Shown here: piece by piece, positions 4,888 to 36,183 of the stretch | Position numbering within the stretch: position 1 is the first letter of the stretch | Layout of the letters: each line of letters begins with the position of its first letter | NCBI GenBank assembly: GCA_030605385.1 | Contig: JAUWIL010000002.1 | Span: forward strand, 1 to 37,983 | Origin: Methanobacteriota archaeon | Lineage (GTDB): Archaea > Halobacteriota > Syntropharchaeia > JAUWIL01 | Length of the DNA stretch: 37,983 bases | Direction of reading: 5' to 3' | Notes under the pieces: generated by a model | What the model was told of the DNA's origin: nothing | The model's database searches: none | Seen by the model: the letters and a program-made list of their open reading frames with translations, nothing else | Translations under genes and position numbers: made by a program

Positions 4888-5208
4888 ATGGATAATTATA
4901 TTCAGGTATCGACCACAACGGAGGAAAGAGAGGATGCAGAAAGAATGGCAAGGGTACTGGTGGAGAAGAGGTTGGCGGGATGTGTTCAGATAGTTGGCCC
5001 TATGTCAAGCACTTATTGGTGGAAAGGCAATGTAGAGGTTGCAGAGGAATGGTTGTGCATTATCAAGAGCAGCAGGCGCCTCTATAATAAGCTTGAAGAA
5101 ACAATAAAGGAAGTACACCCCTACGAGACACCTGAAATAATTGCCGTGCCTGTTATTGAAGGGAGTAAGGACTTTCTTGAATGGCTTGGCAGCGAGATTA
5201 AAAAATAG
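4888..5208 (+). CDS. cutA: divalent-cation tolerance protein CutA
   Basis: The 106-aa protein shows the CutA1 pattern: AERMARVLVEKRLAGCVQIVGPMSSTYWWKGNVE...EWLCIIKS...HPYETPEIIAVPV. Confidence 0.8.
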   Translation: MDNYIQVSTTTEEREDAERMARVLVEKRLAGCVQIVGPMSSTYWWKGNVEVAEEWLCIIKSSRRLYNKLEETIKEVHPYETPEIIAVPVIEGSKDFLEWLGSEIKK

Positions 5209-5305
5209 TATCTAAATATCATAAATGGCATCTAAAAGTATGTTCATCTAAAGGCATGTTTACCTAGAGTCATTTTACACACTGTAATTGCATAGTGCAC
5301 TATAA

Positions 5306-5659
5306 TTGTGTAGCATAGTAATAGCCAATGCAGGGGTCATAGGTATGCTGGGCGAGGAAGTAGATGAGTTTGGCGAGAAAAGGGTAAAAACGGAAATGGA
5401 CTCTGTTAAAGAGGAACATGAAAGGCTTTTCAAGGCTGCCAGCAACCCGCAGAGGCGCAAGATAGTGGCCGCCATAGGCATAAATGGTGCCACCAAGGAA
5501 GAGGTAGGTGAAGCTACGGGAATTGACGGCTTCTTACTGGGATATCACCTTGACGTACTATTGAAAGGTGAATTTGTAAGGATGGATGACAATGGTCGTT
5601 ACAGACTTACAGATGGGAATAGCGATTCTCCAGCATGTCTAAAAAGCAACGCTTTTTAG
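5306..5659 (+). CDS. ArsR-like winged-helix transcription regulator
   Basis: NPQRRKIVAAIGINGATKEEVGEATGIDGFLLGYHLDVLLKGEFV...GRYRLT fits an HTH plus wing. The start is uncertain (alternative Met codons at 5345 and 5396). The last 8 codons and the stop lie inside the hairpin array. Confidence 0.5.
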   Translation: MCSIVIANAGVIGMLGEEVDEFGEKRVKTEMDSVKEEHERLFKAASNPQRRKIVAAIGINGATKEEVGEATGIDGFLLGYHLDVLLKGEFVRMDDNGRYRLTDGNSDSPACLKSNAF

Positions 5660-5842
5660 ACGGTTGTAGAACGTAGTTCTACAAACATGTTCGAAAACCT
5701 TGGGTTTTCGTACTGTTGCGGAACTTCGTTCCGCAAACATGTCTGGAAGCGAAGCTTCCATATGGTTATAGAACTACGTTCTATAAACATGTCTAAAACA
5801 CTACGTGTTTTATACGGTTGCAAAATCTTTGATTTTGCAAAC
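5634..5842. repeat. hairpin array, family 1: 8 consecutive hairpins of alternating classes A and B
   Basis: Stem/loop units read directly: GTCTAAAAAGC-aac-GCTTTTTAGAC, TGTAGAAC-gta-GTTCTACA, CGAAAACC-ttg-GGTTTTCG, TGCGGAAC-ttc-GTTCCGCA, TGGAAGC-gaa-GCTTCCA, TATAGAAC-tac-GTTCTATA, TAAAACAC-tac-GTGTTTTA, TGCAAAATC-ttt-GATTTTGCA. The linkers CAAACATGTCT and ATACGGTTG are conserved. The array lies between convergent genes. Confidence 0.9.
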
Positions 5843-5846
5843 ACTC

Positions 5847-7220
5847 TTAAACATTTTTGCGCATATTCCCTCTTGCATCCTCCAGAGCTAGGGTAAAGGC
5901 GTCTGTCAGCATGCTGAGCGGGGGAGTATAGCACCGTTCGTACGACAACAGCTCATCCAGATGTGCACCGTTCTTTATTGCCATACATATCATGTTAGTG
6001 CGCTCCTTGACATCCTCCCACGAGATTATTTGAGCTCCAATGATGCGCCCATCAAGGGTGAACAGCAGCTTCATATGCATTTCACAGGCACCAGGGTAGT
6101 AAAACGACCTGCTTAGTGCCTTACCATATCCATGGATACACTTCATCCCGGTAGCAGCGGCTCCGTTAGACGTTATGCCGACGGAACCGACCTGCATGCC
6201 GCTTACAACGGCAGCTGCCGGACCCACACAGGGCTCCAGAATCGCACTGCCGCCGAGAATATTCTCTGTGATGACCCGCGCCTGAAGGGCTGCTGTGGAA
6301 GCAAGGGCAAGTATCATCGGTCGGTTCGTAACACCATTTATAACCTCTACACAGTCGCCCATGGCATACACATTATCAAGGTACGAGCGCCCTTTCTTCA
6401 CCTGCATGCCTGAGTTGGTGGCAATTGCTCCGGTAATGCTGACCTCGATCCCTGAATCAACCGCAAGCTTCGTGTTGGGGCGCACGCCCGTAGAGATAAT
6501 CACAAGGTCAGAAGGTATTGATTCTCCATTTCCCAGCAGCACACATTCAACCCTATCACTTCCCTTTATTGCTTTGACAATGCTGCTGGTATATATTTTG
6601 AGACCTACAATCTTCTCCATGTACTTCTGCACAATTAATGCCATATCAGTGTCCAGTGTTTGGGGGAATATACTGGGGAGCGCCTCGACAATACTTGTTT
6701 TAATCCCCCCCTCGGCAAATGCACTGCCGACCTCCATGCCGATTGCGCCTGCGCCGATTATTACAGCACTCTTTGCAGTTTGCATCATCTTCTGAATCTT
6801 TAGGGCATCGCGGTAGCTGCTAATGGCTGAAACTCCATCCAGTTCCAACCCCTCTATTGGCGGTATGAAGGGCATTCTACCAGTGGCTATGATGAGATTA
6901 TCGTAATCATATACCGCCCCGCTCTCTGTTTCTATACTGCTGGCATCATCGTCTATACGGATTACGCGCTCGCTTGAGTGCAGTTTTATATCATTCTCTT
7001 CATAGAATCCCTCAGGATCCATGCGCAGTTCTTCCATGTCCTTTATGATTCCGGCCAGTACGAATGGTATTCCGCAGGTCGAGTACTTGCCGTAGTCATC
7101 CGCCCTGAAAACATGTATTTCCATATTTTGGTTTCTTTTACGTACACCCAAAGCGGCATTCAGACCCGAATTCCCGCCGATTACTATAAGTCTACCACCG
7201 CCCATCTCAACCATCACCAT
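5847..7220 (-). CDS. FAD-dependent pyridine nucleotide-disulfide oxidoreductase, NADH oxidase/CoA-disulfide reductase branch
   Basis: N-terminal VIGGNSGLNAA dinucleotide motif, single redox-Cys context YSTCGIPF, and a second motif VIIGAGAIGMEVG. Confidence 0.8.
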   Translation of the reverse strand: MVMVEMGGGRLIVIGGNSGLNAALGVRKRNQNMEIHVFRADDYGKYSTCGIPFVLAGIIKDMEELRMDPEGFYEENDIKLHSSERVIRIDDDASSIETESGAVYDYDNLIIATGRMPFIPPIEGLELDGVSAISSYRDALKIQKMMQTAKSAVIIGAGAIGMEVGSAFAEGGIKTSIVEALPSIFPQTLDTDMALIVQKYMEKIVGLKIYTSSIVKAIKGSDRVECVLLGNGESIPSDLVIISTGVRPNTKLAVDSGIEVSITGAIATNSGMQVKKGRSYLDNVYAMGDCVEVINGVTNRPMILALASTAALQARVITENILGGSAILEPCVGPAAAVVSGMQVGSVGITSNGAAATGMKCIHGYGKALSRSFYYPGACEMHMKLLFTLDGRIIGAQIISWEDVKERTNMICMAIKNGAHLDELLSYERCYTPPLSMLTDAFTLALEDARGNMRKNV

Positions 7221-7283
7221 GTCACTATTTCACCATGTCACCATTATTACTGCCAGATTATTTATTCGATCGCTTCAACTTTT

Positions 7284-7482
7284 CAAACATGTCTAAAAAG
7301 CTCCGCTTTTTAGACGGTTGCAAAACTACGTTTTGCAAACATGTCTAAAACACTGCGTGTTTTATACTGTTGCGGAACTGCGTTCCGCAAACATTTCATA
7401 CGGTTGCAGAATCTCTGATTCTGCAAACATGTTTAAAATGCAAGGCATTTCATACGGTTGCAAAATCTTTGATTTTGCAAAC
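7284..7482. repeat. hairpin array, family 1: 7 hairpins plus one deleted unit
   Basis: Same linkers as 5634-5842. Stems are GTCTAAAAAGC, TGCAAAAC, TAAAACAC, TGCGGAAC, TGCAGAATC, (T)AAAATGC (imperfect) and TGCAAAATC. At 7393-7401 the linkers are fused with no class-B hairpin between them. The last 31 nt (7452-7482) are identical to 5812-5842. Confidence 0.9.
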
Positions 7483-8082
7483 AACAACGTTCTCAGCCTC
7501 AGACAGCATTTTTTCGAGAGGCTGTTCAGCATCGATGCACACAAACCTGTCAGGCTCCTCGTTCGCAAGGCGGAGGTAGTTCTCATGCACAACCTTAAGG
7601 AAGGCAACACTCTCAAATTTTGTACGCTTACCTCTGGAGCTGCACCTCTCAAACGCAACTTCCGGACTAACAAGTAGCAGCAGCGTCAGGTCGGGTTTGA
7701 CAGTCCAACCCTCATGTAACTTTTTAACCCATGATACGGCATCATCAAATAAGGCAAGCTCCTTCAGAGATGCCCCCTGGTAGGCATATCGACTATCAGA
7801 ATAGCGATCCGATATTACATTCTTACCGGCTTCCAGTGAAGGTTTAATAACCTTCGCCAGATGTTCTGCGTGGTCAGCAGTGAACATGAACGCCTCGACC
7901 AGAGGTTTCATGCCCCCATTCCTGAGAGATTTCTTGATCATACTCCCGATGGCGCCATCTGTCGGCTCTACGGTGTAAATAATATTATCGTCTATTTTTT
8001 TTGTCTTGAGGTGATTGATAACAGCAGATTTACCACACCCATCAATACCCTCAATAGTGATCAGGACAGCTCTGGCGCTCAT
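7450..8082 (-). CDS. tmk: thymidylate (dTMP) kinase
   Basis: P-loop ITIEGIDGCGKS and a DRY...AYQ motif (SDRYSDSRYAYQGA). The last 10 codons (VVCKIKDFATV) and the stop are encoded by the terminal hairpin of the array. Confidence 0.85.
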   Translation of the reverse strand: MSARAVLITIEGIDGCGKSAVINHLKTKKIDDNIIYTVEPTDGAIGSMIKKSLRNGGMKPLVEAFMFTADHAEHLAKVIKPSLEAGKNVISDRYSDSRYAYQGASLKELALFDDAVSWVKKLHEGWTVKPDLTLLLLVSPEVAFERCSSRGKRTKFESVAFLKVVHENYLRLANEEPDRFVCIDAEQPLEKMLSEAENVVVCKIKDFATV

Positions 8083-8104
8083 GGCATATCACAATAACCT
8101 TTCA

Positions 8105-8136
8105 TCAGTTGACCATAATATCAGTTGACCATAATT
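8105..8136. repeat. two-copy tandem duplication (16-nt unit) in the tmk upstream region
   Basis: TCAGTTGACCATAAT occurs at 8105-8119 and again at 8121-8135, directly adjacent, 23 nt upstream of the tmk start. Confidence 0.85.
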
Positions 8137-8170
8137 AATCTTGCTGGTTATAACAGCGTTTCGGTGGAGT

Positions 8171-8300
8171 CTTGCAAAAACGAAGTTTTTGCGAGATATC
8201 TGGAACGCAAAGCGTTCCAGAGATATACTGCAAATTTTGCGAAGTCAAAAGTTTCACGATGCAGTGGAGCTTTGCTCTGCTATACAGGTGAAACTGCAAC
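8171..8300. repeat. degenerate hairpin cluster (family 2) in the divergent tmk/rubrerythrin spacer
   Basis: Hairpins are CTTGCAAAAAC-gaa-GTTTTTGCGAG (8171-8195) and ATATCTGGAACGC-aaa-GCGTTCCAGAGATAT (8196-8226), then weaker ones. The first hairpin and the GTGGAGC...GCTCTGCT...TACAG segment recur at 32991-33050. Confidence 0.7.
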
Positions 8301-8367
8301 TTTCGTCAACTCTGGTCTGCGAAAAGTTTAAATCACGATATGAATTAACTGGTGTGGAGGTGAAAGT

Positions 8368-8871
8368 ATGTCTAATACAGATGAAAATCTCAAAACCGCC
8401 TTCGAAGGAGAGAGTCAGGCGAACCGCAGATACTTAGCATTTTCCAATCAGGCTGAGGAGGAGGGACTCCCTAATATTGCAAGACTTTTCAGGGTTGCTG
8501 CAGAGGCAGAAACCGTGCACGCCTTGAACGAAATAGCTGCGATGGGAGGAGTCAGATCCACCCTTGAGAATCTGAATGAGGCAGTGAATGGGGAGGAATA
8601 TGAATCCACTCAGATGTATCCGAAGTTCATAGAGGATGCAAAAAAAGAGGATAGGTCTGAAGCGGTTCTGGCTTTTACGTGGATCAGGAAGGTAGAGAAC
8701 GAACACATGAATATGTACAGACAGGCCATCGATCAAGTATCAAAGGGTGAGGATGTAGAGGAAAAAGAATACTATATCTGCATGAACTGCGGACATCCAG
8801 AAGAATTTGCAGCGCCCGAGAGGTGCCCCGTATGCGGCGCACCCAGAGAGATGTTCAAGAAAGTGGATTGA
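8368..8871 (+). CDS. rbr: rubrerythrin
   Basis: Ferritin-like diiron N-domain (LKTAFEGESQANRRYLAF..., AAEAETVHA) plus a C-terminal rubredoxin-like CMNCGH...CPVCGAP. The SD GGAGGTGA lies upstream. Confidence 0.9.
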   Translation: MSNTDENLKTAFEGESQANRRYLAFSNQAEEEGLPNIARLFRVAAEAETVHALNEIAAMGGVRSTLENLNEAVNGEEYESTQMYPKFIEDAKKEDRSEAVLAFTWIRKVENEHMNMYRQAIDQVSKGEDVEEKEYYICMNCGHPEEFAAPERCPVCGAPREMFKKVD

Positions 8872-8875
8872 TATT

Positions 8876-8925
8876 TATGGAACAAAGTTCCATAACCGTA
8901 TGAAAGCGTTGCTTTTCAGACATGC
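8876..8925. repeat. hairpin array, family 1, inverted orientation, 2 hairpins
   Basis: TATGGAAC-aaa-GTTCCATA, AACCGTA linker, TGAAAGC-gtt-GCTTTTCA, GACATGC. This is the reverse complement of the class A/class B architecture. It begins 5 nt after the rubrerythrin stop. Confidence 0.85.
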
Positions 8926-8989
8926 AGCAATCTTTTTAAACGGAATCCTATGTGAGCCGAACTCAATGACATGATTTGCGGAAAGATGA

Positions 8990-9011
8990 CGATCAGAGTG
9001 CGATCAGAGTG
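8990..9011. repeat. perfect two-copy tandem duplication (11-nt unit)
   Basis: CGATCAGAGTG occurs at 8990-9000 and 9001-9011, 12 nt upstream of the kinase start codon. Confidence 0.9.
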
Positions 9012-9022
9012 GGGGCTTCTGG

Positions 9023-9670
9023 ATGACGGATAGGAAAATAGTCGTGCTAAAGCTTGGTGGTAGTCTTATAAACACCACCATGGAGCTTCTAAACGCCCTC
9101 AACGAATATGCGGTGGAGCATGAAATAATCCTACTTATCATACCGGGAGGAGGACCATATGCAGATACCGTACGGGCGCACTCGGGCAGGCTTTCAGAGG
9201 ATACAGCCCACTGGATGAGTATAATGGCAATGGATCAGTACGGTCTGCACATCACCGATAGAACAAAGATATCCACAGTAGAGGAAATCAGCATCATCGG
9301 CGAATGCGAACCATGTGCTGTTGTATTGCTGCCCTACAAATTCATGCGCAGCACCGACCCACTACCGCACACGTGGAAAGTTACATCGGACAGCATTGCA
9401 GCGCATATAGCGGCTGTTGTTGGAGCACGGCAGTTCATCAAGGCAACAGATGTGGACGGCATGATGATAAAGGGGGTGCTGGTGGAGCAGATAGGTGCCG
9501 GGGAGCTTGAACAAATAAACGAGGTAACATGCATCGACAGAGCACTTCCCGGTATACTCATGAAGGAAAAGATAAACTGCATAGTGGTAAATGGCAGGTA
9601 TCCCGAGCGCATAATTGACCTGCTTGACGGCAGGGCTGCCGTATGCACTTTGGTAAAAGGAAGCACATGA
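9023..9670 (+). CDS. amino-acid-kinase-family protein, MfnE-like (methanofuran biosynthesis kinase candidate)
   Basis: 215 aa with VVLKLGGSLI and IIPGGGPYADTVR motifs. This small archaeal AAK-fold protein resembles my memory of MJ0458-type MfnE. The specific function is inference. Confidence 0.55.
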   Translation: MTDRKIVVLKLGGSLINTTMELLNALNEYAVEHEIILLIIPGGGPYADTVRAHSGRLSEDTAHWMSIMAMDQYGLHITDRTKISTVEEISIIGECEPCAVVLLPYKFMRSTDPLPHTWKVTSDSIAAHIAAVVGARQFIKATDVDGMMIKGVLVEQIGAGELEQINEVTCIDRALPGILMKEKINCIVVNGRYPERIIDLLDGRAAVCTLVKGST

Positions 9671-16822: not shown

Positions 16823-18181
16823 GTGATTGCTAAGAACGGCTTGCGCGGTACAATAAGAATCATTCCTATTGTCATGGTATTACTTGTGTTACTGCTGCCT
16901 TCAAGTGCTCTGGCAGTGGACGAGCGCAGTCTGGAGCCTTATGCGCCATGGCTTGGACCTGACAATGTGTTTTATGGAGTTAAGATTTTTATCGAGGATG
17001 CCGATGAAGCATTCACCTTCAACCAGTCAGAGAAGCTGGAGAAGCAGGTCTCGCATGCAGGTGAAAGGGTTGCCGAAGCCGTCAGGACTGCCGAGAAGGG
17101 AGACGACAATGCCACCAAGACTGCCATAAAGTTGTATGTGGACAAGAGCAGGATGATCATGAAGACTGCCGCCAGGGTTAACGCCACCACGGGCATGCTT
17201 GAGAAGATTCAGACAAGGATGGACAATCAGACAAGTGTTATAGATAGTTTATTCAGGGGCGGAAAGCTTGGTGACGAAGCCAGGGCAGAATGTGGATATG
17301 CCCTTACGAATATGAGCGCCGCAAGAAGTACTGTGGAGCAGGCCAGGAGTCGTGCTACCGATAGGGCGGTTTGCGGAGACGGAAAGTGCAGCGGCGGCGA
17401 GAACTACCGCTCATGCTCGCAGGACTGTCCACCGGTTTGCGGCAACAATGACTGCGAAACACCTGATGAAACCCCTCAGAACTGCCCCCAGGACTGTCCA
17501 TGTGGAGACGGTGTATGCGACCCGAACAGGGGCGAGAACTACCGCTCATGCAGAGCTGACTGTCCACCGGTTTGCGGCAACAATGACTGTGAGGCACCGG
17601 ACGAGAATCATGATAACTGTCCTGAGGACTGCAAGTGCGGCAACGGCGTCTGTGAGCCGGACAGAGGCGAGAACTACTACTCGTGCCGTGGAGACTGCCT
17701 CGCGGTCTGCGGCAATGGCGCATGTGAGAAGCCTGATGAGGCATACAGCAACTGTCCGCAGGACTGCACCGGAAGCTTTGGAGCCCAGATAGTTGGGGAT
17801 GTGCGGTTTGACAAGCCGTCATATAAAGCAGGCGATAAGGTTGTTGCAATGCTTGATGTAAGGAATACCGGTGAACTTGAAATAACCAGCGAGAGAGTGG
17901 TGATAACCGCCACCGTCACAAGACTGGATGACTGGCTTGCCAACAAAGCTCTTGGGGCAAAGAGCAAAGATGAGAAGACATACACCTTTACCATGGATTT
18001 TAACGTGCTGATATATTCAGGGCAGACCGAAACACTCTCGGCGGCATTCAACGTGCCGAAGGAACTTGAAACTTCCATAGGGAAGATAAGCCTTGCAGGT
18101 GATTATGACATAACCCTTGATGTGAGTGCTAATGGGAACAATATCGGCACAAGGAATGTAAAGCTGACATTGGGTAAGTGA
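16823..18181 (+). CDS. secreted protein: signal peptide, helical DUF5667-like domain, 3 x 45-aa double Cys-rich units, C-terminal beta domain
   Basis: GTG start after GGGGG. Hydrophobic signal IIPIVMVLLVLLLPSSALA and PDNVFYGVKIFIED. The Cys-rich region 17372-17770 consists of CG(D/N)GxC...ENYxSCxxDC + VCGNxxCExPDExxxNCPxDC units. The tail DVRNTGELEI is CARDB-like. Confidence 0.7.
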   Translation: MIAKNGLRGTIRIIPIVMVLLVLLLPSSALAVDERSLEPYAPWLGPDNVFYGVKIFIEDADEAFTFNQSEKLEKQVSHAGERVAEAVRTAEKGDDNATKTAIKLYVDKSRMIMKTAARVNATTGMLEKIQTRMDNQTSVIDSLFRGGKLGDEARAECGYALTNMSAARSTVEQARSRATDRAVCGDGKCSGGENYRSCSQDCPPVCGNNDCETPDETPQNCPQDCPCGDGVCDPNRGENYRSCRADCPPVCGNNDCEAPDENHDNCPEDCKCGNGVCEPDRGENYYSCRGDCLAVCGNGACEKPDEAYSNCPQDCTGSFGAQIVGDVRFDKPSYKAGDKVVAMLDVRNTGELEITSERVVITATVTRLDDWLANKALGAKSKDEKTYTFTMDFNVLIYSGQTETLSAAFNVPKELETSIGKISLAGDYDITLDVSANGNNIGTRNVKLTLGK

Positions 18182-22916: not shown

Positions 22917-22960
22917 ATTCTTCCTCCATTTACAAAAGATCGGGATGAACCTATTTTCGA

Positions 22961-24319
22961 CTATTTATTCTCAACAACCGTCTTAACAAAGTTTTCTATT
23001 TCATCTTGTAGTGTAGTGACCGGAGTCATTCTCTTATCCCAGGAGTCTGCCTGGAGCCTGAGCATTGGAGTTCCGGTTCGTTTTCGTATTTCGTCTCTAA
23101 CTATCCTGAAAACACCCCATGTTTGCTTGCATGCAGGATGTCCGCAGAATATGCAGCAATCTGCACCAAGTTCATTTATTTCCCACACCAGGTCATCCAC
23201 CCATACCGAAAAGTCTGCTCCAACCTGCCGCGTCATCGGGTAGTTCCACGTACTTTCGGCTGCACCGTCAATCATCGTCTCCTTGTCCGAGGTATCCACA
23301 TGATTTGGGAAAAAGAATCCAAGTATGTCGTTGAGATATGTTATGCCGTTTTCCTCCATCCAGTTGAACAGTCCACCTATGTCAAAGTAATGACCGGTAT
23401 ATATCCATAGAGCTCTGGCTCTTTCCTCAGGTGCCGGATAGTCCCCCCTTCTTTTCCTCTCCTCTGCCACCTGTACCATCATTTTCACCATGTCAATACT
23501 TTCTTTCGTACCCCACATTGTGTATTTGGTGGCATACATAAAAAATGCAAAGACGTTGGGTACGGGACAGGGCACGACCTTCCTCAGATCGTTCAACTCG
23601 TAAAAGTACTCTGCAGCAGTGTTTGCATTCTTCATGACTTCTCTGAGCCGCCCTTCATCCAGCTCCTCACCTACAAAGCCTTCAAGGTCTCGAACAAAGT
23701 CTCTAAAGTTGTTCTTGTATGCTTCAAAGGACCTTTTTGTATTATCCGCAGGTTTCGCGGTAAAGAATGTAGGCACCTCAAGATACTCAGCCAGAAATTC
23801 ATATAATTTGGAATTATTGTCACATGACCCGGGTGAAGCCGAGATTATCGCATCAGGTGTTACATCCATACCGCTTAACAGAGATCCTGCCAGACCAACA
23901 CCTGATGTGCAGAGCGAATCGGGAAGTCCCATTTCACGCGTGATATCAATATATCTTTCTATCTGACCATCCAACACCATAACTCCTAATGTATTCATAA
24001 TCTCCTCGCACATAGGTACTGCGCCTTCAAATGCATAGAGGAGCTCAGGGGGAAAATTAAACGGGTGCAGTATGATTTTTTTACCATCGTCGTGTGCACT
24101 CTCGATCATTGACAGATAGCCACTTAGCGCCCTTGAAATGCGTACAGTTGCATCTGCAGACCTCGGCGCCAGAAGCGCCCCCAAAATGCTTTTCAACTGA
24201 GGAGGTAAAATTCTGATTATCCCGTCCACCTCTTCCTGGCTCAAGCCGTATTGAATGTTTGCCGCCATTCCAAATATCGGAGCCGATCTCTCTAGTATGC
24301 CTTTATTAACAACCACCAT
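22961..24319 (-). CDS. BzdO/BcrB-like subunit of the benzoyl-CoA reductase / 2-hydroxyacyl-CoA dehydratase family (duplicate copy)
   Basis: 452 aa, collinear with the 24476..25864 product (for example ILHPFNFPPELLYAFEGAVPM, GSCDNNSKL, CIFCGHPACKQTWGVFRIVRDEIRK). The two 3' ends share a 42-nt identical stretch. Confidence 0.8.
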   Translation of the reverse strand: MVVVNKGILERSAPIFGMAANIQYGLSQEEVDGIIRILPPQLKSILGALLAPRSADATVRISRALSGYLSMIESAHDDGKKIILHPFNFPPELLYAFEGAVPMCEEIMNTLGVMVLDGQIERYIDITREMGLPDSLCTSGVGLAGSLLSGMDVTPDAIISASPGSCDNNSKLYEFLAEYLEVPTFFTAKPADNTKRSFEAYKNNFRDFVRDLEGFVGEELDEGRLREVMKNANTAAEYFYELNDLRKVVPCPVPNVFAFFMYATKYTMWGTKESIDMVKMMVQVAEERKRRGDYPAPEERARALWIYTGHYFDIGGLFNWMEENGITYLNDILGFFFPNHVDTSDKETMIDGAAESTWNYPMTRQVGADFSVWVDDLVWEINELGADCCIFCGHPACKQTWGVFRIVRDEIRKRTGTPMLRLQADSWDKRMTPVTTLQDEIENFVKTVVENK

Positions 24320-24475
24320 CGCTTTTTACCTCATCTATATAAATCTCCCGGCTCTACAGGTGCACTTGCCGTTTATCATGAGTCTGCCCATTGTTAAAAC
24401 TGCCTGAGTACCTGAGTACCAGATGAGCCGACATCAATACCGCCTAGTAACTACCTTCACGCTCAGAGTACCAAA
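24320..24475 (-). pseudogene. fossil 5' fragment of a BcrAD/BadFG ATPase gene in the spacer between the two BzdO-like paralogs
   Basis: The minus strand reads GGCGGTATTGATGTCGGCTCATCTGGTACTCAG(GTACTCAG)GCAGTTTTAACAATGGGC... = GGIDVGSSGTQ(+8-nt duplication at 24404-24419)AVLTMGRLMINGK. Compare AGIDIGSLSAQAVIVESGSI at the start of the intact ATPase gene (22916). There is no start codon and the frame is broken by the duplication. Confidence 0.6.
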
Positions 24476-25864
24476 TCACGAAGAAGTTGCCCTCGGCTTC
24501 CTCGGCTTTTTACTCTCAACAACCGTCTTAACAAAGTTTTCTATTTCATCTTGTACTGTAGTAATTGGAGTCATCCTCTTATCCCAGGCATCTGCCTGAA
24601 GTCTAAGTGTTGGATTGCCGGTTTGCTTTCTTATCTCGTCTCTAACTATCCTGAATACGCCCCATGTTTGCTTGCATGCAGGGTGTCCGCAGAATATAGC
24701 ACAGTCTGCATGCAGTTCGTTTATTGCAGTTACTGAGTCATCCACCCATGCCGTAAAGTCTGCCCCAACCTGCCGTGTCATTGGATAGTTCCATACAGTT
24801 CCGGCTGCAGCATCGATCATCGACTCCTTATCAGAGGTATCCACAGGCATTGGGAAGAAGAATCCGAGTAGGTCATTGAGATATGTTATGCCGTGTTCTT
24901 CCATCCAGTTGAACAGCCCATATATGTCATAGTAATAGCCAGTATATATCCATAGAGTCCTTGCCCTCTCTTCTGGTGCCGGATAGTATCCATTCTGTCT
25001 TCTCTTCTCTGATACCTCCACCATCCGTCTCATTGCATCGATGCCCCCATCCGTACCCCACAGTGTATATCTGGTACCATACGTAAGAAATGAGAACGCA
25101 TTGGGCACTGGACAGGGTATGGCGCTCCTCAGCTCATTCAGTTCGTAGAAGTACTCTGTAGCCATATTTGACTTCTTCATGACGTCTCTGAGCCGTTCTT
25201 CATCCAGCTCCTCACCTACAAAGTCTTCAAGATTCGAAACAAACTCCCTGAAGTTGTTCTTGTATGCTTCAAAGGATCGTTCTGTATTATCTGCAGGTTT
25301 CTCAACATGGAATATGGGCACCTCCATGTATTCGGCTGCAAATTCATGCAGCTTTGCATTGTTGTCACAAGACCCGGGTGCAGCCGAGATTATTGCATCA
25401 GGCGGCACATCCAGACCGCTCAGCAGAGACCCTATCAGACCAATACCGGATGTGCAGAGCGAATCGGGAAGCCCTATTTCACGCGTGATATCAATATATC
25501 TTTCTATCTGCCCATCCAATGCCATAACCCCCATGGTGTTTAGAAGCTCTGTGGCCAATGGTACCGCTCCCTCAAATGAATAGATAAGGTCTGGTGGAAA
25601 ATTGAATGGGTGCAGTATAACTTTCTTACCATCATCATGCGCTGCCTTAACCGTAGATATATACTTCTGCAGCCCTTTTATAACACATATAAATGCGTCT
25701 CTTGTTCTCGGCACCATGAGTGCGCCTAAACTGCTTTTCATCTGAGGCGGTAAAATTCTGATCAGTCCATCTACCTCTTCCTGGCTCATGCCGTATTTGA
25801 TGCGCGGCCCCATGCCAAATATTGGATCCAGCCTTTTTATTATACCATCTCTAACAACTACCAT
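24476..25864 (-). CDS. BzdO/BcrB-like subunit of the benzoyl-CoA reductase / 2-hydroxyacyl-CoA dehydratase family
   Basis: 462 aa, paralog of 22961..24319, with an extra basic tail KKPRKPRATSS. Confidence 0.8.
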   Translation of the reverse strand: MVVVRDGIIKRLDPIFGMGPRIKYGMSQEEVDGLIRILPPQMKSSLGALMVPRTRDAFICVIKGLQKYISTVKAAHDDGKKVILHPFNFPPDLIYSFEGAVPLATELLNTMGVMALDGQIERYIDITREIGLPDSLCTSGIGLIGSLLSGLDVPPDAIISAAPGSCDNNAKLHEFAAEYMEVPIFHVEKPADNTERSFEAYKNNFREFVSNLEDFVGEELDEERLRDVMKKSNMATEYFYELNELRSAIPCPVPNAFSFLTYGTRYTLWGTDGGIDAMRRMVEVSEKRRQNGYYPAPEERARTLWIYTGYYYDIYGLFNWMEEHGITYLNDLLGFFFPMPVDTSDKESMIDAAAGTVWNYPMTRQVGADFTAWVDDSVTAINELHADCAIFCGHPACKQTWGVFRIVRDEIRKQTGNPTLRLQADAWDKRMTPITTVQDEIENFVKTVVESKKPRKPRATSS

Positions 25865-25870
25865 CAGGGC

Positions 25871-28555: not shown

Positions 28556-29824
28556 TTACAAAGTCTCGCAGCCGTAGAACCATCTTGCCGTCTCCATCTG
28601 ACATAACTGCTTCCCCCCCATCCATAATTGAATCATCTTGACATCTCTCCAGTGTTTTTCAACATCCCAGTCTCTATCACATCCGTAGGTTCCCATCAAG
28701 CTCGCCGCATTGTTGGTGACCTCAATACATTTATCTGCTACGTGCATTTTTACTGCCCTTGATTTTGCCACTCCCTCATGCGACCACTTATCCCAATACA
28801 GCTCGGGGCGGTCAAGTGTTCTTGCGGATTGATAGGTTGCGATTCTGCAGATTTCTATGTCTTTGGCTATATCTGACAGAACGGCTGCAACTGCGGTATT
28901 CTCTTTTAAAGGTTTCCCGCGAAATATCTTGTTGGAGCAGTATTCTTTAAGTATTTCATAGGTGTTCATCATCGCACCCACGCAAAAAGCAGCGCTGGAC
29001 ATAGATCCCCAGTTAATCACTTCCCTGAAGTACTTTGCATCGTCTCCGGCCCCCCACGCTCTATACTTCTTGGGGACTCTAACGTTCTCGAACCATATGT
29101 CCGAGTTTTTGTCCGCAGCCATTCCTGCTTTCTTGTAGGGCTCGCCCTGTGTAACTCCCTCAGTATCTGCCGGGACAAAGATGAATGCAAAATCATCTTC
29201 ATCACTTGACCCCTGTTTTGTCGTGCATATCACTCCAAAAAGGTCAGCGACACCGCCTGTGTTCGTCGGCCAGAGCTTATGCCCGTTGATGACCCACTCA
29301 TCACCGTCAAGCTCGGCAGTGGTCGTGATTGTTTTACCGCCCATGTTACCCATATTTTCTATGTCTGATCCTCCTTGCGGCTCGGTCATGGCGTTGGCAG
29401 CAAAGCGCGGCTCATCGGCATCGCAGAACATAGGGGCAAATTCAGCACACAATTCTTCATTTATGTGGGGTTTCAAAGCAATCATTATGAGCGGCCAGAA
29501 CGTGACGGCAGAAGCAACGGCAATCCCGGTGTCAGCCCTTCCAACTTCCTCGAACACCCTGGCCATGAGGGTGCCGACATGGTCGGACTGCCCCAGCCCC
29601 CAGCCCCCCACCTCTTTCGGCCATACTGCTTTCTGGAGACCTATGTCGACATAAAGTTTTTTCATGGCGGGCTCGACCCAGTTGTGGTCTTTCCAGTCCT
29701 CATTAAACTTTCTTCTGTACGGAATGACGTCGTTCTCTGCCCACTCTCTTATCATCCCTCCTATGTATTTCTCGAGTGGAGACAGAAATTCTTTGGGGCG
29801 TGTGAAATCATCGATTGTTGTCAT
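28556..29824 (-). CDS. acyl-CoA dehydrogenase-fold protein (more canonical member of a pair)
   Basis: AMTEPQGGSD and NGHKLWPTNTGG contexts. The C-terminus RDVKMIQLWMGGK replaces the usual RDxxxxxIYEGT. ATG at 29824 after AGGTGG is preferred over GTG at 29836. Confidence 0.8.
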   Translation of the reverse strand: MTTIDDFTRPKEFLSPLEKYIGGMIREWAENDVIPYRRKFNEDWKDHNWVEPAMKKLYVDIGLQKAVWPKEVGGWGLGQSDHVGTLMARVFEEVGRADTGIAVASAVTFWPLIMIALKPHINEELCAEFAPMFCDADEPRFAANAMTEPQGGSDIENMGNMGGKTITTTAELDGDEWVINGHKLWPTNTGGVADLFGVICTTKQGSSDEDDFAFIFVPADTEGVTQGEPYKKAGMAADKNSDIWFENVRVPKKYRAWGAGDDAKYFREVINWGSMSSAAFCVGAMMNTYEILKEYCSNKIFRGKPLKENTAVAAVLSDIAKDIEICRIATYQSARTLDRPELYWDKWSHEGVAKSRAVKMHVADKCIEVTNNAASLMGTYGCDRDWDVEKHWRDVKMIQLWMGGKQLCQMETARWFYGCETL

Positions 29825-29836
29825 TTTATTTACCAC

Positions 29837-31084
29837 CTACAATGTTTTACAGTCATAATACCACCTGGCTATATCCATCATACCAGGCACTTTGCCGGTG
29901 CATACCTCTATTGTTTTAACATCTCTCCAGTGTTTTTCAACATCTCCCTCCGTTGCATAGCCTTGAGATGCCATTAGCTCCATCGCCTTTCCAATAGCAC
30001 TAACGGCAGAGCTGGTAACATGCAGTGCGACCGCTCTGGCAGTTGTAAACATCTTATCTGACCATGCTTCTCCATAAACGTCAGGTTTAGCGAGCATTCT
30101 GGCCACATTCCATGTCAGTATTCTTGATACTGCAACATGGTTGGCCACTTCTGCCAGAACAGCAGCATCAACACTATTCTCCTTCAGGGGTTTGCCGCTT
30201 ATTGTTCTGGTGTTGCCCCACTCCTTGACAATTTCATAAACATCCATCATCGACCCTATGCAAACAGCACTGGCGCATAAGCCGTGCCATGAAAGCACCT
30301 CTTTGAAACATTCAGCGCCGCCCCTTTGGAGTGCGGCATACTTTCTGGGGACTCTGACATTTTCAAACCACACATCTGCGTTTCTGTCTGACACAAGTCC
30401 GGTCTTCTTATAGGGCTCCTCCATCCTGATGCCTTCAGAATCGGCCGGGACGAGTACGTATACAATATCATCCCTCTCCAGCCCCTTTGCGGCACAAAAA
30501 ACACCGAACAGATTTGCTGCGCCACCTGATGACAGGGGACGCAGTTTCCGACCGCTGATAGTTACCGAATCACCATCGTTTTTAGCTGTGGCTTTGATAA
30601 CTCTCCCATATATGCTGCCGGCGTTTATACCATCAACATCACCATACTCTGGCAGTATAGGAGACCCGATGCGCACATCTTTGGTATTGCAGAACATCGG
30701 TGCAAGTTCAGTACACGCATCCTCGTTTATATTTGGCTCCATTGCGATTGGAGCAAGCAGACTGAAAGTTCCGGAGAATATAAAGCCAATTCCAGGGTCG
30801 GCTCTTCCAACCTCCTCGAGTGCCCTGACAATGGTGGTTGATACATATGGCGAATTAAGTCCGGCACCGCCGTATTTTTCCGGCCACATTAACTTCTGCA
30901 GACCGATATCTACGAATAGTTTTCTTATGGCTGGACCGATCAACTCATTATTATGGTCTTCATCGAACTCCTGTCTGTTTGGGATAACCTCTTTTTCAGC
31001 CCACTCTCTTATGCTGCTGGCAAGAATCTCATCATCTTCGCTCATCCACTCTTTTGGATAAGGAAACATATCTGTGGTTTCCAT
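29837..31084 (-). CDS. acyl-CoA dehydrogenase-fold protein (degenerate member of a pair)
   Basis: Collinear with the neighbouring paralog, but its motifs are degenerate (PILPEYGDVD, SGRKLRPLSSGG, RDVKTIEVCTGK). ATG at 31084 after AGGGG is preferred over TTG at 31093. Confidence 0.75.
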   Translation of the reverse strand: METTDMFPYPKEWMSEDDEILASSIREWAEKEVIPNRQEFDEDHNNELIGPAIRKLFVDIGLQKLMWPEKYGGAGLNSPYVSTTIVRALEEVGRADPGIGFIFSGTFSLLAPIAMEPNINEDACTELAPMFCNTKDVRIGSPILPEYGDVDGINAGSIYGRVIKATAKNDGDSVTISGRKLRPLSSGGAANLFGVFCAAKGLERDDIVYVLVPADSEGIRMEEPYKKTGLVSDRNADVWFENVRVPRKYAALQRGGAECFKEVLSWHGLCASAVCIGSMMDVYEIVKEWGNTRTISGKPLKENSVDAAVLAEVANHVAVSRILTWNVARMLAKPDVYGEAWSDKMFTTARAVALHVTSSAVSAIGKAMELMASQGYATEGDVEKHWRDVKTIEVCTGKVPGMMDIARWYYDCKTL

Positions 31085-31107
31085 TTTCGTCAACCCCTTT
31101 TTGATTT

Positions 31108-31188
31108 GTTTGTGAAATCGAAGATTTCACAACCGTATTGAAGCAGAGCTTCAATACATGTTTGAAAAACGCAGTTTTTCAAACATGC
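31108..31188. repeat. hairpin array, family 1, inverted orientation, 3 hairpins
   Basis: GTTTGTGAAATC-gaa-GATTTCACAACC, GTATTGAAGC-aga-GCTTCAATAC, GTTTGAAAAAC-gca-GTTTTTCAAAC, followed by ATGC. It starts about 24 nt upstream of the ACAD-like start codon at 31084. Confidence 0.9.
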
Positions 31189-32944: not shown

Positions 32945-32990
32945 GACTTTGCCGTATCCTGATTGGTAGATTGGTGTTATTTGTTGTATT

Positions 32991-33101
32991 CTTGCAAAAA
33001 CGAAGTTTCTGCTAAACAGCGTGGAGCAAAAGCTCTGCTTTTGTTTTACAGAATCGGAGATTCTGTAACCGTATGAAAAACCGTAGGTTTTTCAGACATG
33101 C
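32991..33101. repeat. composite hairpin array: family 2 part (32991-33046) plus family 1 part in inverted orientation (33047-33101)
   Basis: CTTGCAAAAAC-gaa-GTTTCTGC, GAGCAAAAGC-tct-GCTTTTGTT, TACAGAATC-gga-GATTCTGTA, ACCGTA linker, TGAAAAACC-gta-GGTTTTTCA, GACATGC. Confidence 0.85.
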
Positions 33102-33205: not shown

Positions 33206-33231
33206 TTTGCCTGAATAATTTGCCTGAATAA
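33206..33231. repeat. perfect two-copy tandem duplication (13-nt unit)
   Basis: TTTGCCTGAATAA occurs at 33206-33218 and 33219-33231. Confidence 0.9.
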
Positions 33232-33248
33232 AATTCTGGGGAGTAGTA

Positions 33249-33292
33249 GTGGGAAAAGATATTTTATTGAGTGGGAAAAGATATTTTATTGA
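33249..33292. repeat. perfect two-copy tandem duplication (22-nt unit)
   Basis: GTGGGAAAAGATATTTTATTGA occurs at 33249-33270 and 33271-33292. Confidence 0.9.
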
Positions 33293-33447
33293 TGGAGGTA
33301 CAATTGAATCTATAAAAAAAGTCTCACCATCACCATCAGAACATTACTACCAGAAGTTGTTGTCGGAGAGTCTGCTGCAACGGAAGATTTCTGTGCACTC
33401 AGATGTGGTGGTTATGGAATCAGAAACCGAAAGGGGGTAATAACAAA

Positions 33448-34912
33448 ATGACACTAATAACAGGTGAAGAATATCGAGAAAGTTTAAGAAAAAGGAAGTC
33501 TCTCAAGATCCATCTGCACGGCGAAGAGATTAAAAATCCCGTGGACCATCCAATTATTAAAGCATCGATTAATTCAGTGGCCCTTACCTATGAATTGGCT
33601 GAAAACCCAGGATACCGGGATTTAATTACAACCACGTCATCGTTAAGCGGGAAAACAATCAATCGATTTTGCCATCTCCATCAAAGTACAGAGGATCTCC
33701 AGAACAAGGTCAGAATGCTTTAGATTATTGGGGCAGAACTGTGGAACCTGTTTCCAGCGCTGTGTGGGAATGGATGCGATTAACGCCGTTTTTTTAACCA
33801 CCTATGAAATTGATAAGAAATATGACACCAGCTATCACCAGCGTTTCACAGAATACGTTAAAATGGTGGAAGAAAAAGACTGGGTTATTGACGGTTGCAT
33901 GACTGACCCCAAAGGCGATCGGAGCAAGCATCCGCACCAGCAGAAGGATCCAGATGTTTTCTTCCACGTAGTGGAAAGAAAAGAAGACGGAGTGGTTGTT
34001 AGGGGTGCCAAAGCCCATCAGACAGGAGCAATCAACTCTCATGAGCACCTGATTATGCCCACTCTGGCAATGCGGAACGAGGAGAAGGGTTTTACCATTT
34101 GCTGTGCAATTCCGGTAGACGATGACGGAATTACATATTATTGCGGAAGGCAATCCTGTGATTTACGCCGGCTGGATCAGAGTGAAGAGGGAAATATCGA
34201 CTGCGGCAATCAATTTGGGGTACATGAATGTTTGGTAGTCTTTGATGATGTTTTTGTGCCAAACGAACAGATCTTCATGAATGGAGAAAGTGAGTTTTGC
34301 GGACGTCTGGTCGAATCCTTTGCAGCATACCATCGTCAGAGTTACGGTGGGTGTAAAGCTGGGGTTGGCGACGTCATGGTCGGAGCGGCTGCAGCGATTG
34401 CAGAATATAATGGAGTTCAAAATGCCTCACACATCAGGGATAAAATTACGGAAATGGCTCATTTGAATGAAACCATCTATGCTTGTGGTATGGCTTGCTC
34501 CGCGTGTGGGAAAAAAACGGAGGCAGGAAATTATCTCGTGGATATCCTATTGGCGAATGTGTGCAAACAGAATGTAACCAGATTTCCATTTGAAATCGCC
34601 CGACTTTTACAGGATATTGCAGGCGGGTTGTTCGTCACATGCCCAAGTGCAAGAGAACTAAGGAATCCCGAGACCAGAAAAATTATTGAGAAATATCTGG
34701 TCGGAGCAGAAGGGGTTGACACAATAAACCGAATAAAGATGATGCGTTTGATTGAAAACTCGGTCCTGGGTCGGGGAGCAGTCGGATATTTGGCGGAATC
34801 AATGCATGGTGCCGGCTCTCCCCAGGCTCAAAGAATTATGATCAATCGTTTAGCCAACCTGGAAGAGAAGAAAAAAATGGCTAAATCGTTGGCTCGAATC
34901 AAGGAGGAGTAA
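33448..34912 (+). pseudogene. abfD: 4-hydroxybutyryl-CoA dehydratase / vinylacetyl-CoA delta-isomerase, split by one +1 frameshift at 33718-33724
   Basis: ORFs 33403..33723 and 33728..34912 together are collinear with my recollection of Clostridium aminobutyricum AbfD (...HLHQSTEDLQNKVRML | RLLGQNCGTCFQRCVGMDAINAV...AAYHRQSYGGCKAGVGD...ESMHGAGSPQAQRIMI). The start ATG at 33448 follows AGGGGGT. Skipping T33721 restores one 487-codon frame. It could instead be an assembly error or a programmed shift. Confidence 0.75.
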
Positions 34913-35027: not shown

Positions 35028-36179
35028 TCAAGGGTAAGTCATATCTTCCTCAGTGATGAGTTTAATTTCAACGTCGTCTAATAAAAATTCTGAATTATCA
35101 AGGGTTTCAAATGCAACTCCACCGGAAAGAATAGGGCTTTCAGTATCTTTGTATTTTATCAAAAGCTCGTCATCGATGTAAACATTTAGAATGTTATCAT
35201 ATCCTCTTATTTCAAAAGTGTGCCAGTTCTCGTCTAATTGGACATGTGTTCCACCGACCAGATTAATATGGGTAGTGGAATCTGTGCTTTTGCCTAAGCT
35301 CATGGAGTTATTATTAACCCCCACCATATAACGCGTAAAGGTACTGCCCTCGCTATTAAACCGATAGTTAAAATGCATAGCACCATTGATTATCTTGAAT
35401 CTAGCTTTGAATATGTAATTAGTCCAGCTCTTGCCCTCAAGCTTTGCCCAATTGTGTCCTGTCCCTCTTAGAACAATATTGCTATTTTCCATTGTTGTGT
35501 GCCAAGCTGTAGTTGTTTTTCCTTCTATATCATGAAACATCCAATTTTGAACGCCACTCTCAAAATCCTCAATGAAATAGTGTGTAACAACGTTCTCACA
35601 CTTCTGGGCGGTGTAGTTAAAGCTGTCTGCAGTAAGCCTGTTGTAGTCATCACAGTTTGGACAGTCTGCCGGACAACTGGAGTATGTTTCAGCACTCTCA
35701 TCACATATGCCATTACCGCAACAAGGGATGATAACTTCATTGACACATTTTTGTGCATGGTAATCATAGCTGTCTTTTGTGCATTCGTTACCATCATCAC
35801 AGTTCTGGCAATCTCTGGCACAATTTGAATAGGTCTCACCTGTTTCGCAAACACCATTGCCACAGCAAACAACATCAAGAATTGGCGTGTTAACGCATTT
35901 TTGCTCATGATAATCGTATTCATCAACAGTGCAACTGTTCTTATCATCACAGTTGGGGCAGTCAGCCGCACACCCTGTGTAGTTTTCACCAACCTCACAT
36001 ATTTCATTTCCGCAGCAGTTAGTGATAGAGGAGTACACACATTTGTTATCCGTACATTGTGCTGCAAAACAGGTTTTGGTCAGACAATCAGCGCTAGTCT
36101 CGCATTCTGTTTCGACACAGCCGCTTGCAAAAACTGCTAGCACTAAAACAGCCAGCAATACTCCAATGCTTCTCCTCAT
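35028..36179 (-). CDS. Cys-rich surface lipoprotein with C-terminal ConA/LamG-like (DUF1080-like) beta-sandwich domain
   Basis: The likely start is MRRSIGVLLAVLVLAVFASGC, with lipobox-like ASGC. There are 3 x ~45-aa units CCGNxxCExGExYxxCxxDCxNCDDxNxCTxDxYDYHxQKCxN (35598-36119). The tail WTNYIFKARFKI...WHTFEIRGYDNILNVYIDDELL...ILSGGVAFETL is lectin/jelly-roll-like. Confidence 0.7.
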   Translation of the reverse strand: MRRSIGVLLAVLVLAVFASGCVETECETSADCLTKTCFAAQCTDNKCVYSSITNCCGNEICEVGENYTGCAADCPNCDDKNSCTVDEYDYHEQKCVNTPILDVVCCGNGVCETGETYSNCARDCQNCDDGNECTKDSYDYHAQKCVNEVIIPCCGNGICDESAETYSSCPADCPNCDDYNRLTADSFNYTAQKCENVVTHYFIEDFESGVQNWMFHDIEGKTTTAWHTTMENSNIVLRGTGHNWAKLEGKSWTNYIFKARFKIINGAMHFNYRFNSEGSTFTRYMVGVNNNSMSLGKSTDSTTHINLVGGTHVQLDENWHTFEIRGYDNILNVYIDDELLIKYKDTESPILSGGVAFETLDNSEFLLDDVEIKLITEEDMTYP

Positions 36180-36183
36180 TTTT

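Follow-up and report, generated by a model that had tools for sequence, protein, structure and literature searches.

The window and its hairpin arrays

A 37,983-nt stretch of DNA, the whole of contig JAUWIL010000002.1 and referred to here as the window, carries a family of short hairpin-forming repeats, which an initial annotation had read as modular arrays of two alternating hairpin classes, A and B. About 27 units are present at six loci in 38 kb; most are extragenic, and two run into the final 8-10 codons of a gene. The host belongs to the Archaea. The window carries genes for Mch, TiaS, NAC, archaeosine TGT domains and PyrBI, together with a cluster of the benzoyl-CoA-reductase/2-hydroxyacyl-CoA-dehydratase type and acyl-CoA dehydrogenases, and its Mch shares 66% identity with the best database proteins, which belong to Syntropharchaeia, Methanospirareceae (ANME-1) and Halobacteriota metagenome-assembled genomes (MAGs).

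The largest copy, array 1 (5634-5842, + strand), consists of four B-A doublets, that is, eight contiguous perfect hairpins. Their quoted stems, frames and coordinates are all present in the sequence and every loop has 3 nt, as originally described; the stems span 7-11 bp rather than the 8-11 bp first given, one being of 7 bp. The class B units (first, third, fifth and seventh) have the stems TAAAAAGC, CGAAAACC, TGGAAGC and TAAAACAC, with loops aac, ttg, gaa and tac, and the class A units (second, fourth, sixth and eighth) have the stems TGTAGAAC, TGCGGAAC, TATAGAAC and TGCAAAATC, with loops gta, ttc, tac and ttt. The array opens with the letters CATGTC-TAAAAAGC-aac-GCTTTTTA-GACGG-TTGTAGAAC-gta-GTTCTACAA-ACATGT. 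It occupies the entire spacer between two convergent genes, an ArsR-like gene (5306-5659, +) and an NADH-oxidase-like gene, nox (5847-7220, -). The final 8 codons of the ArsR-like gene and its TAG stop come from the first hairpin, and the far end of the array lies 4 nt from the stop of nox.

Array 2 (7284-7482, +) has 3.5 doublets, with seven hairpins because one B unit has been deleted at 7391-7399; one B unit (7434-7452) carries an A.C mismatch. Tandem Repeats Finder (TRF) detects a 52-nt period here. The array is located between tmk (7450-8082, -) and the TATA-like box and promoter of nox, and the end of tmk, 10 codons with the TGA stop, is encoded by its last A unit plus linker; these codons fall beyond the part of Tmk alignable to solved structures. 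Array 2 is a paralogue of array 1 in direct orientation, and the two bracket nox. That gene has the appearance of lying within what was once a single array; alternatively, recombination between the two could loop it out. Each of the two arrays is preceded by TTTT(G)CAAAC.

The remaining copies are short and lie on the - strand. A single B-A doublet at 8872-8925 (65.4 bits by covariance model, its B unit with a 1-nt bulge) begins 3 nt after the rubrerythrin stop codon (8869-8871), between tandem + genes. A second doublet (31105-31160, 62.4 bits) lies between tandem - genes, downstream of a thyA-like gene and about 24 nt upstream of the likely start of an acyl-CoA dehydrogenase operon. It is joined by a hybrid extra unit (31157-31187, -), CATGTTTGAAAAAC-tgc-GTTTTTCAAACATG, which carries the CATGT 'head' of the family on both sides and is therefore a perfect 14-bp palindrome right through the linker. 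The third doublet (33043-33101, 61.3 bits) occupies part of the spacer from which the thyA-like gene (start 32944, -) and abfD (start 33403, +) diverge. The initial annotation had seen the same grammar at four loci besides array 1, and it is present at all of them (7284-7482, 8872-8925, 31105-31188 and 33043-33101).

To these we add two degenerate members, neither assigned a strand. At 8166-8227, in the divergent spacer between tmk and the rubrerythrin gene, the hairpins TCTTGCAAAAAC-gaa-GTTTTTGCGAGA and TCTGGAACGC-aaa-GCGTTCCAGA stand adjacent with different linkers, and the covariance model matches on both strands with E ~5e-4. At 32992-33045, adjoining the 33043-33101 doublet, are GCAAAAAC-gaa-GTTTCTGC (one mismatch) and CAAAAGC-tct-GCTTTTG, a pair that is 72% identical to 8160-8213. 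A 25-nt palindromic element, TCTTGCAAAAACGAAGTTT(T/C)TGC, is common to 8170-8196 and 32990-33014, upstream of tmk and of the thyA-like gene respectively; the alternatives are a degenerate hairpin-family member and a shared operator of dTMP metabolism. The six loci fall in two clusters, around tmk/nox and around the thyA-like gene, and the approximately 25 other spacers of the window hold no family member.

The abundance of these hairpins is far beyond chance. We scanned the window for perfect inverted repeats with a 3-nt spacer, using 100 dinucleotide-preserving shuffles as control. With stems of at least 8 bp, 22 hairpins were found against a mean of 0.67 (maximum 3) in the shuffles, and with stems of at least 7 bp, 24 against 2.48. 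In the scan the six loci extend over 5637-5840, 7291-7480, 8174-8221, 8875-8895 (with an imperfect neighbour that reaches 8925), 31110-31187 and 33027-33094; only one perfect hairpin, at 767-789 and unrelated, lies elsewhere. The 22 perfect hairpins measure 17-31 nt overall, the units of the family 21-25 nt. The B-A frame pattern has 2 matches in the window where 0.00 are expected, and a covariance model of the doublet, of the kind that the initial annotation had proposed, recovers only the six loci, the next-best candidate having E = 0.31. Folded as single-stranded DNA (ssDNA), region 5625-5850 forms the eight hairpins at -63.8 kcal/mol (z = -13.1); the RNA fold of the minus strand of this region gives z = -11.1. 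Chance, or an artefact of assembly or amplification, hardly deserves consideration against these figures. The contig comes from a single metagenomic assembly, and nothing further speaks for such an origin, whereas the hairpin excess over shuffles is 33-fold, six separate loci share linkers and unit types, and the loci are embedded between intact genes to which they contribute in-frame stop codons.

Anatomy of the doublet

Classes A and B alternate strictly at 26-nt spacing with two types of linker. All five arrays, counting the single doublets, have as their first unit a B with a CATGT head and as their last an A followed by CAAACA, so that the repeating module is a 52-nt B-A doublet, CATGTCT-(B)-ATACGG-(A)-CAAACA. 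It is present once at 8872-8925 and at 33043-33101, once with the extra unit at 31105-31188, 3.5 times in array 2 and four times in array 1. Neighbouring doublets overlap at the CA of CAAACA/CATGTCT, and the B unit that opens an array is preceded by a non-consensus base, usually as gCATGT.

The class A consensus is (T/G)A(C/T)(G/T)G - TT R Y R R A A (T) C - NNN - G (A) T T Y Y R Y A A - ACATGT, and that of class B is ACATGT(C/T) - T R R A A A .. S C - NNN - G S .. T T T Y Y A - (G/T)A(C/T)(G/T)G. The stems do vary from unit to unit, as had been claimed, but in class A this applies to stem positions 3-6 only; the rest of the stem, TT..AA(T)C with the closing C:G pair, is invariant. Class B has a conserved C.T mismatch two pairs from the stem base in 7/10 units. 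Nor are the linkers strictly constant, as the initial annotation had them, since the variants ACGG/ACTG/ATGG and ATGTC/ATGTT/ATGTA exist. Its description of the pattern as the inverse of CRISPR, with constant linkers and variable palindromes, is over-simplified, half of each stem being invariant and the loop being the fastest-evolving part. Each unit also places a T4-T5 run on both strands.

The two classes share their junctions, a palindromic 'head' ACATGT and a 'tail' (T/G)ACGG. By hand count, the reverse complement of A (CATGT-TTGCAAAAC...) agrees with B (CATGTC-TAAAAAGC...) at about 63% of positions, compared with about 54% for A and B read directly. With this closer match and the palindromic ACATGT junction, A and B can be read as two related units placed head-to-head, like the oppositely oriented subfamilies of the bacterial interspersed mosaic elements (BIMEs), which are built from repetitive extragenic palindromes (REPs). 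The idea that the junction is a restriction site, with ACATGT/CATG avoided elsewhere, was rejected, CATG occurring 210 times against 147 expected.

Covariation of the stems

Unit alignments made with MAFFT put gaps in the loops, and we therefore built structural alignments by hand, with N as a placeholder that kept MAFFT ungapped, for 12 class A and 10 class B units of the window. In class A all 113 of 113 stem cells are Watson-Crick paired. Four pairs covary, at stem positions 3-6, with two-sided changes in 17 cells and no one-sided ones. In class B, 92.6% of cells are in standard pairs, nearly all of the unpaired ones being the systematic C.T mismatch, and six pairs covary, with 16 two-sided changes and a single one-sided change (a G.U at the outermost pair). 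The variable positions of class A show four transition states and one transversion, those of class B five and five. For neither class was the covariation score matched by any of 500 shuffles, and slid partner-column controls left only 28-50% (class A) and 22-54% (class B) of cells paired. The earlier claim that both arms change together is borne out well beyond these controls.

This two-sidedness bears directly on one alternative, that the units are palindromic operators for a dimeric DNA-binding protein, either the adjacent ArsR-like regulator or one that controls thymidylate genes. Family members flank tmk as well as the thyA-like gene on the upstream and the downstream side, and the 25-nt element recurs upstream of each; a gene for an ArsR-type winged helix-turn-helix protein adjoins array 1; and the invariant TT....AA(T)C-N3-G(A)TT....AA has the symmetry of a dimer site. 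A protein reading half-sites in duplex DNA, however, requires no complementarity between the variable 4-bp cores, yet 17/17 changes there are two-sided, and units set every 26 bp, eight in a row and running over stop codons, are unlike operators. We consider this explanation very improbable.

What, then, maintains the pairing? Stems that are selected as RNA commonly pass through wobble intermediates, which makes their near-total lack here unusual: G.T or G.U pairs account for 1 of 221 cells in the two classes together. This points to a constraint at the level of DNA, or of two strands. Three options follow, namely that the constraint acts on DNA itself, that both strands must fold, or that a mismatch is quickly resolved by copying from one arm to the other. 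In bacteria, quasi-palindromes are known to undergo templated correction.

The scarcity of wobble also tells against the arrays being precursors of small structured RNAs, whose transcripts would be cut at the ACAUGU/ACGG linkers into hairpin RNAs of about 26 nt, with the variable 4-bp core providing specificity. Such a new RNA system, with a CRISPR logic turned inside out, would suit the regular 26/52-nt spacing, the constant linkers, the confinement of the variable core to stem positions 3-6 and the absence of any matching Rfam family. The variable information would nevertheless be buried in a perfect duplex, and the arrays occur in both orientations, lack a leader or promoter of their own, overlap coding 3' ends and have no associated nuclease gene in the window. 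We regard it as improbable.

Loops and linkers

The loops follow rules of their own. A closing pair 5'-C...G-3' is present in 22/22 core units, and none of the 22 loops has complementary end bases (25% expected; P = 0.0018). GNA triloops, on either strand, are found in 13 of the 22 (12.5% expected; P = 3e-7), and 11 of these 13 lie on the strand complementary to the canonical one (11 vs 2, two-sided binomial ~0.02, calculated by hand). C(GNA)G is the classic hyper-stable DNA mini-hairpin, as in d(GCGAAGC), and the B unit at 5744-5760 contains GCGAAGC literally. The resemblance to d(C-GNA-G) mini-hairpins is close, but those are a structural motif and not a genetic element.

Comparison of arrays 1 and 2 shows that the loops evolve much faster than the stems or linkers. 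In the four unit types that have identical stems in the two arrays, 4/12 loop sites differ compared with 0/82 stem sites (P = 1.6e-4). Between the first two paralogous doublets the loops differ at 8/12 sites, the stems at 12/74 and the linkers at 2/24, and on reading the sequences the stem differences are seen at matched positions of the two arms. Either the loops are mutational hot spots or linkers and pairing have long been held by purifying selection.

Position relative to genes and transcription

As originally noted, the genes on either side of the elements may be convergent, tandem or divergent, and the elements themselves occur in either orientation, with no consistent direction relative to transcription. 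Two genes have their stop codons within an array, and in two further cases an array starts 3-4 nt past a stop codon. A scan of 5000-9500 for bacterial-type intrinsic terminators, in which a T-run directly follows a G+C-rich stem, gives no terminator-like site in any array, in agreement with the original view that these are not dedicated terminators.

The main rival to the interpretation developed below is nevertheless a transcriptional one, in which the arrays are elements selected by the host, acting as tandem bidirectional terminators or as stem-loops that protect RNA 3' ends (with some 5'-UTR structures), evolved in place and spread only by local duplication, under selection for RNA hairpins with U-runs. 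The filling of the whole convergent spacer by array 1, the location of array 2, with the tmk end on one side and the nox TATA box on the other, the starts 3-4 nt past stop codons, the T4-T5 runs on both strands of each unit and the RNA fold (z = -11) would all be accounted for. Conservation of linkers and stems between the paralogous arrays, with loops near saturation, would reflect purifying selection at the level of the host, and pairing by Watson-Crick rules alone would be needed if the RNAs of both strands have to fold. Against this, G.U wobble is almost absent from the 221 paired cells. Two divergent promoter spacers contain members, and a further one stands about 24 nt upstream of an operon start, places in which a terminator would do damage. 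The orientation is inconsistent, there is no bacterial-type terminator signature, and the conserved non-T linkers and the obligatory B-A doublet are left unexplained. Archaeal termination, moreover, needs oligo-T and not hairpins. We judge this explanation unlikely, although better placed than the others raised so far.

Searches beyond the window

No described family was recognised. Rfam gives no match in the whole window at gathering thresholds, and a permissive scan of 5500-7600 yields only sub-threshold matches (E 0.98-7.3). The exact B-A frame pattern has one chance match in 185,579 GTDB species genomes, within a gene of Phycisphaerae and without hairpins, and four matches in JGI metagenome contigs, none with hairpins. 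A looser pattern has 50 matches in IMG/VR, all scoring at most 22.6 bits by the covariance model, compared with at least 43.9 bits for the real doublets. Array 1 has no blastn match among PLSDB plasmids or GenBank phages, and a 650-residue concatenate of open array translations, aimed at spurious open reading frames (ORFs) called across arrays elsewhere, finds nothing at E <= 10 among 5.8 billion proteins. Neither hairpin arrays nor covariance-model matches occur in approximately 120 kb flanking Mch genes in the nearest relatives (Syntropharchaeia, ANME-1/Methanospirareceae, Alkanophagales and other Halobacteriota MAGs). In the literature on archaeal REPs, BIMEs and the REP-associated tyrosine transposases (RAYTs) we found no description of such a family. 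The repeat family, as seen on this single 38-kb contig, is real, its statistical support is overwhelming, and it is apparently undescribed.

Comparison with known elements

The closest parallel is with the BIMEs of E. coli and other proteobacteria (BIME-2 and its Y/Z2 units; Xanthomonas, Stenotrophomonas). In both cases short extragenic palindromes of two alternating classes are regularly spaced with two kinds of short linker, occur as single doublets and as long tandem arrays, and hug stop codons. Successive REPs in a BIME point in alternating directions at regular spacing, and those that vary remain palindromic by way of complementary mutations (PMC2817692), as do the variant units here. REPs are units of about 20-40 nt, typically present in more than 100 copies per genome, and their cognate RAYT (Y1 HUH) gene has inverted units on its flanks. 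There are also differences. The host is an archaeon, the units are perfect, A/T-rich and 21-25 nt long with triloops (the BIME palindromes have about 35 nt and are imperfect and G+C-rich), the stem has a hypervariable core, and there is neither a GTAG/CGTC tag nor a RAYT in the window. The repeats also recall the REPIN-RAYT systems of Pseudomonas and others, where the dispersed unit is likewise a doublet of two hairpins, here plausibly inverted, and the family is private to one lineage. The two REPs of a REPIN, however, pair into one long hairpin, whereas here the B and A stems differ and fold separately.

The initial annotation had also proposed a likeness to MITEs (small transposable elements with inverted repeats). 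Its REP/BIME half fits the two-class alternation, which is the grammar of BIMEs, but the MITE half does not hold: the flanks of the five arrays are without direct repeats that could be target-site duplications, and the ends, CATGTCT... and ...CAAACA, do not form terminal inverted repeats around a body.

Among archaeal elements, the ends of IS200/IS605 and the non-autonomous PATEs derived from them represent the only single-strand HUH transposition system documented in archaea that recognises hairpins (PMC6006769). There too it is a hairpin plus short conserved flanking bases that is recognised. PATEs are hundreds of bp long, with one subterminal hairpin per end and no arrays of 26-nt hairpins. 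Archaeal oligo-T terminators share with the arrays the T4-T5 runs, on both strands, at gene 3' ends, but have no need for a hairpin, conserved linkers or a doublet module. CRISPR arrays also alternate constant and variable segments regularly; here, by contrast, the variable part is the palindrome itself, with 4 bp of information, the constant part is a linker of 5-7 nt, the period is 26/52 nt and the arrays are scattered in gene spacers, with no cas genes in the window (Pfam scans of its ORFs find no cas domains). Integron attC sites, finally, are imperfect palindromes of 57-141 nt with R''/L''-L'/R' boxes and extrahelical bases, beside cassettes and an IntI gene. The present units have 21-25 nt, those of class A being perfect, without an RYYYAAC/GTTRRRY frame; the genes around them have mixed orientations, and the window has no integrase.

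Interpretation

We propose that the arrays are lineage-specific palindromic elements of the REP/BIME type, acting as DNA hairpins in an archaeal chromosome, and assign this reading a probability of about one half. The functional form would be a DNA hairpin, formed in single-stranded DNA during replication or transposition or present as a cruciform, and pairing would be maintained by selection on that hairpin or by intrastrand correction in which one arm serves as template for the other. The conserved linkers may be the recognition or cleavage sites of a trans-acting, structure-specific enzyme, for which the most plausible candidate would be an HUH/Y1 nuclease, IS200- or RAYT-like, encoded elsewhere. 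Such an enzyme could disperse doublets singly into gene spacers and build arrays by head-to-tail joining. As a by-product, because each hairpin has a T4-T5 run on both strands, the arrays could be of use to the host, ending transcription in both directions in the manner of archaeal oligo-T terminators and forming barriers that protect RNA 3' ends.

Several observations weigh against this proposal. The described REP superfamilies carry a GTAG or CGTC tag and are tabulated for bacterial phyla only (PMC3733652). In our family GTAG is seen only as one stem variant, and on the complementary strand the B units are mostly preceded by CGTA, with CGTC in only 2/10; the family is therefore an analogue and not a member of those superfamilies. 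The RAYT subclasses of Y1 are reported only in bacteria, Archaea having TnpA of the IS200 type only (PMC6006769), and Pfam scans reveal no transposase, HUH or integrase domain in any ORF of the window. Conservation of the linkers between arrays 1 and 2, which are paralogous in situ, suggests selection at the level of the host rather than purely selfish spread. Lastly, the reading of A as an inverted B is not decisive, for the palindromic junction makes the likeness of reverse-complemented A to B (63% vs 54%) nearly circular, and with units that are themselves palindromes an alternating orientation is beyond proof.

A stronger form of the proposal, which we hold to be possible but doubtful, is that this would be the first genuine archaeal system of the REP/BIME type, in which 26-nt DNA hairpins are spread as B-A doublets by an enzyme other than a classical RAYT, the stem cores diversify yet stay perfectly Watson-Crick paired through intrastrand templated correction, and the arrays have been co-opted as bidirectional terminators or insulators at gene ends.

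REPs, BIMEs and RAYTs are regarded as bacterial. The one paper that reports archaeal 'REPs', a recent description of a tool, counts any non-terminator intergenic palindrome (PMC12306157). A real, sequence-defined BIME-like family in an archaeon related to Syntropharchaeia and ANME would extend the class to archaea and would raise the question of which archaeal enzyme handles the repeats. It would also offer a clean natural experiment on the evolution of DNA hairpins, with perfect covariation, no wobble, hypervariable triloops and strand-biased GNA. In practice the 52-nt doublet can be used as a marker for binning contigs of this uncultured lineage.

Other features of the window

The unrelated perfect hairpin at 767-789, TGATGAAACA-taa-TGTTTCATCA, stands beside a motif, TTTCGGTGGAG, that is found directly next to a hairpin at both 790-803 and 8159-8169; a third occurrence, CGGTGGAG, falls within a coding region at 9111. 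An 8-nt motif, TCACCATG, is repeated about four times (16 nt x 2) over the region of the nox start codon (7214-7245). Perfect tandem duplications (TRF, 100% matches) of 16, 13 and 22 nt at 8104-8135, 33206-33231 and 33248-33292 lie in the promoter-like spacers upstream of tmk and abfD, which suggests either active short-range duplication in this genome or duplicated regulatory sites.

The abfD gene itself (33403-34912), of the 4-hydroxybutyryl-CoA dehydratase/HpaB family, is broken into two ORFs at about 33719-33727, where the T-run of GCTTTAG carries a +1 frameshift, and deletion of one T restores the conserved RMLRLLGQNCGTCFQRCVG. The split could be a pseudogene, a homopolymer assembly error or programmed frameshifting; an in-frame stop read as selenocysteine or pyrrolysine was rejected, the break being a +1 frameshift.

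Longer repeats are found within coding sequence. At 17396-17715, in a DUF5667-domain ORF (16823-18181), a 135-nt tandem repeat of 2.4 copies (76% matches) encodes a protein module of about 45 residues. Adjacent paralogous gene pairs occupy 22957-25865, 28556-31093 and 35621-37295; they include two HGD-D-type dehydratase subunits and two acyl-CoA dehydrogenases, and in the same regions internal repeats of about 150 nt are common to two neighbouring ORFs without a clear Pfam assignment.

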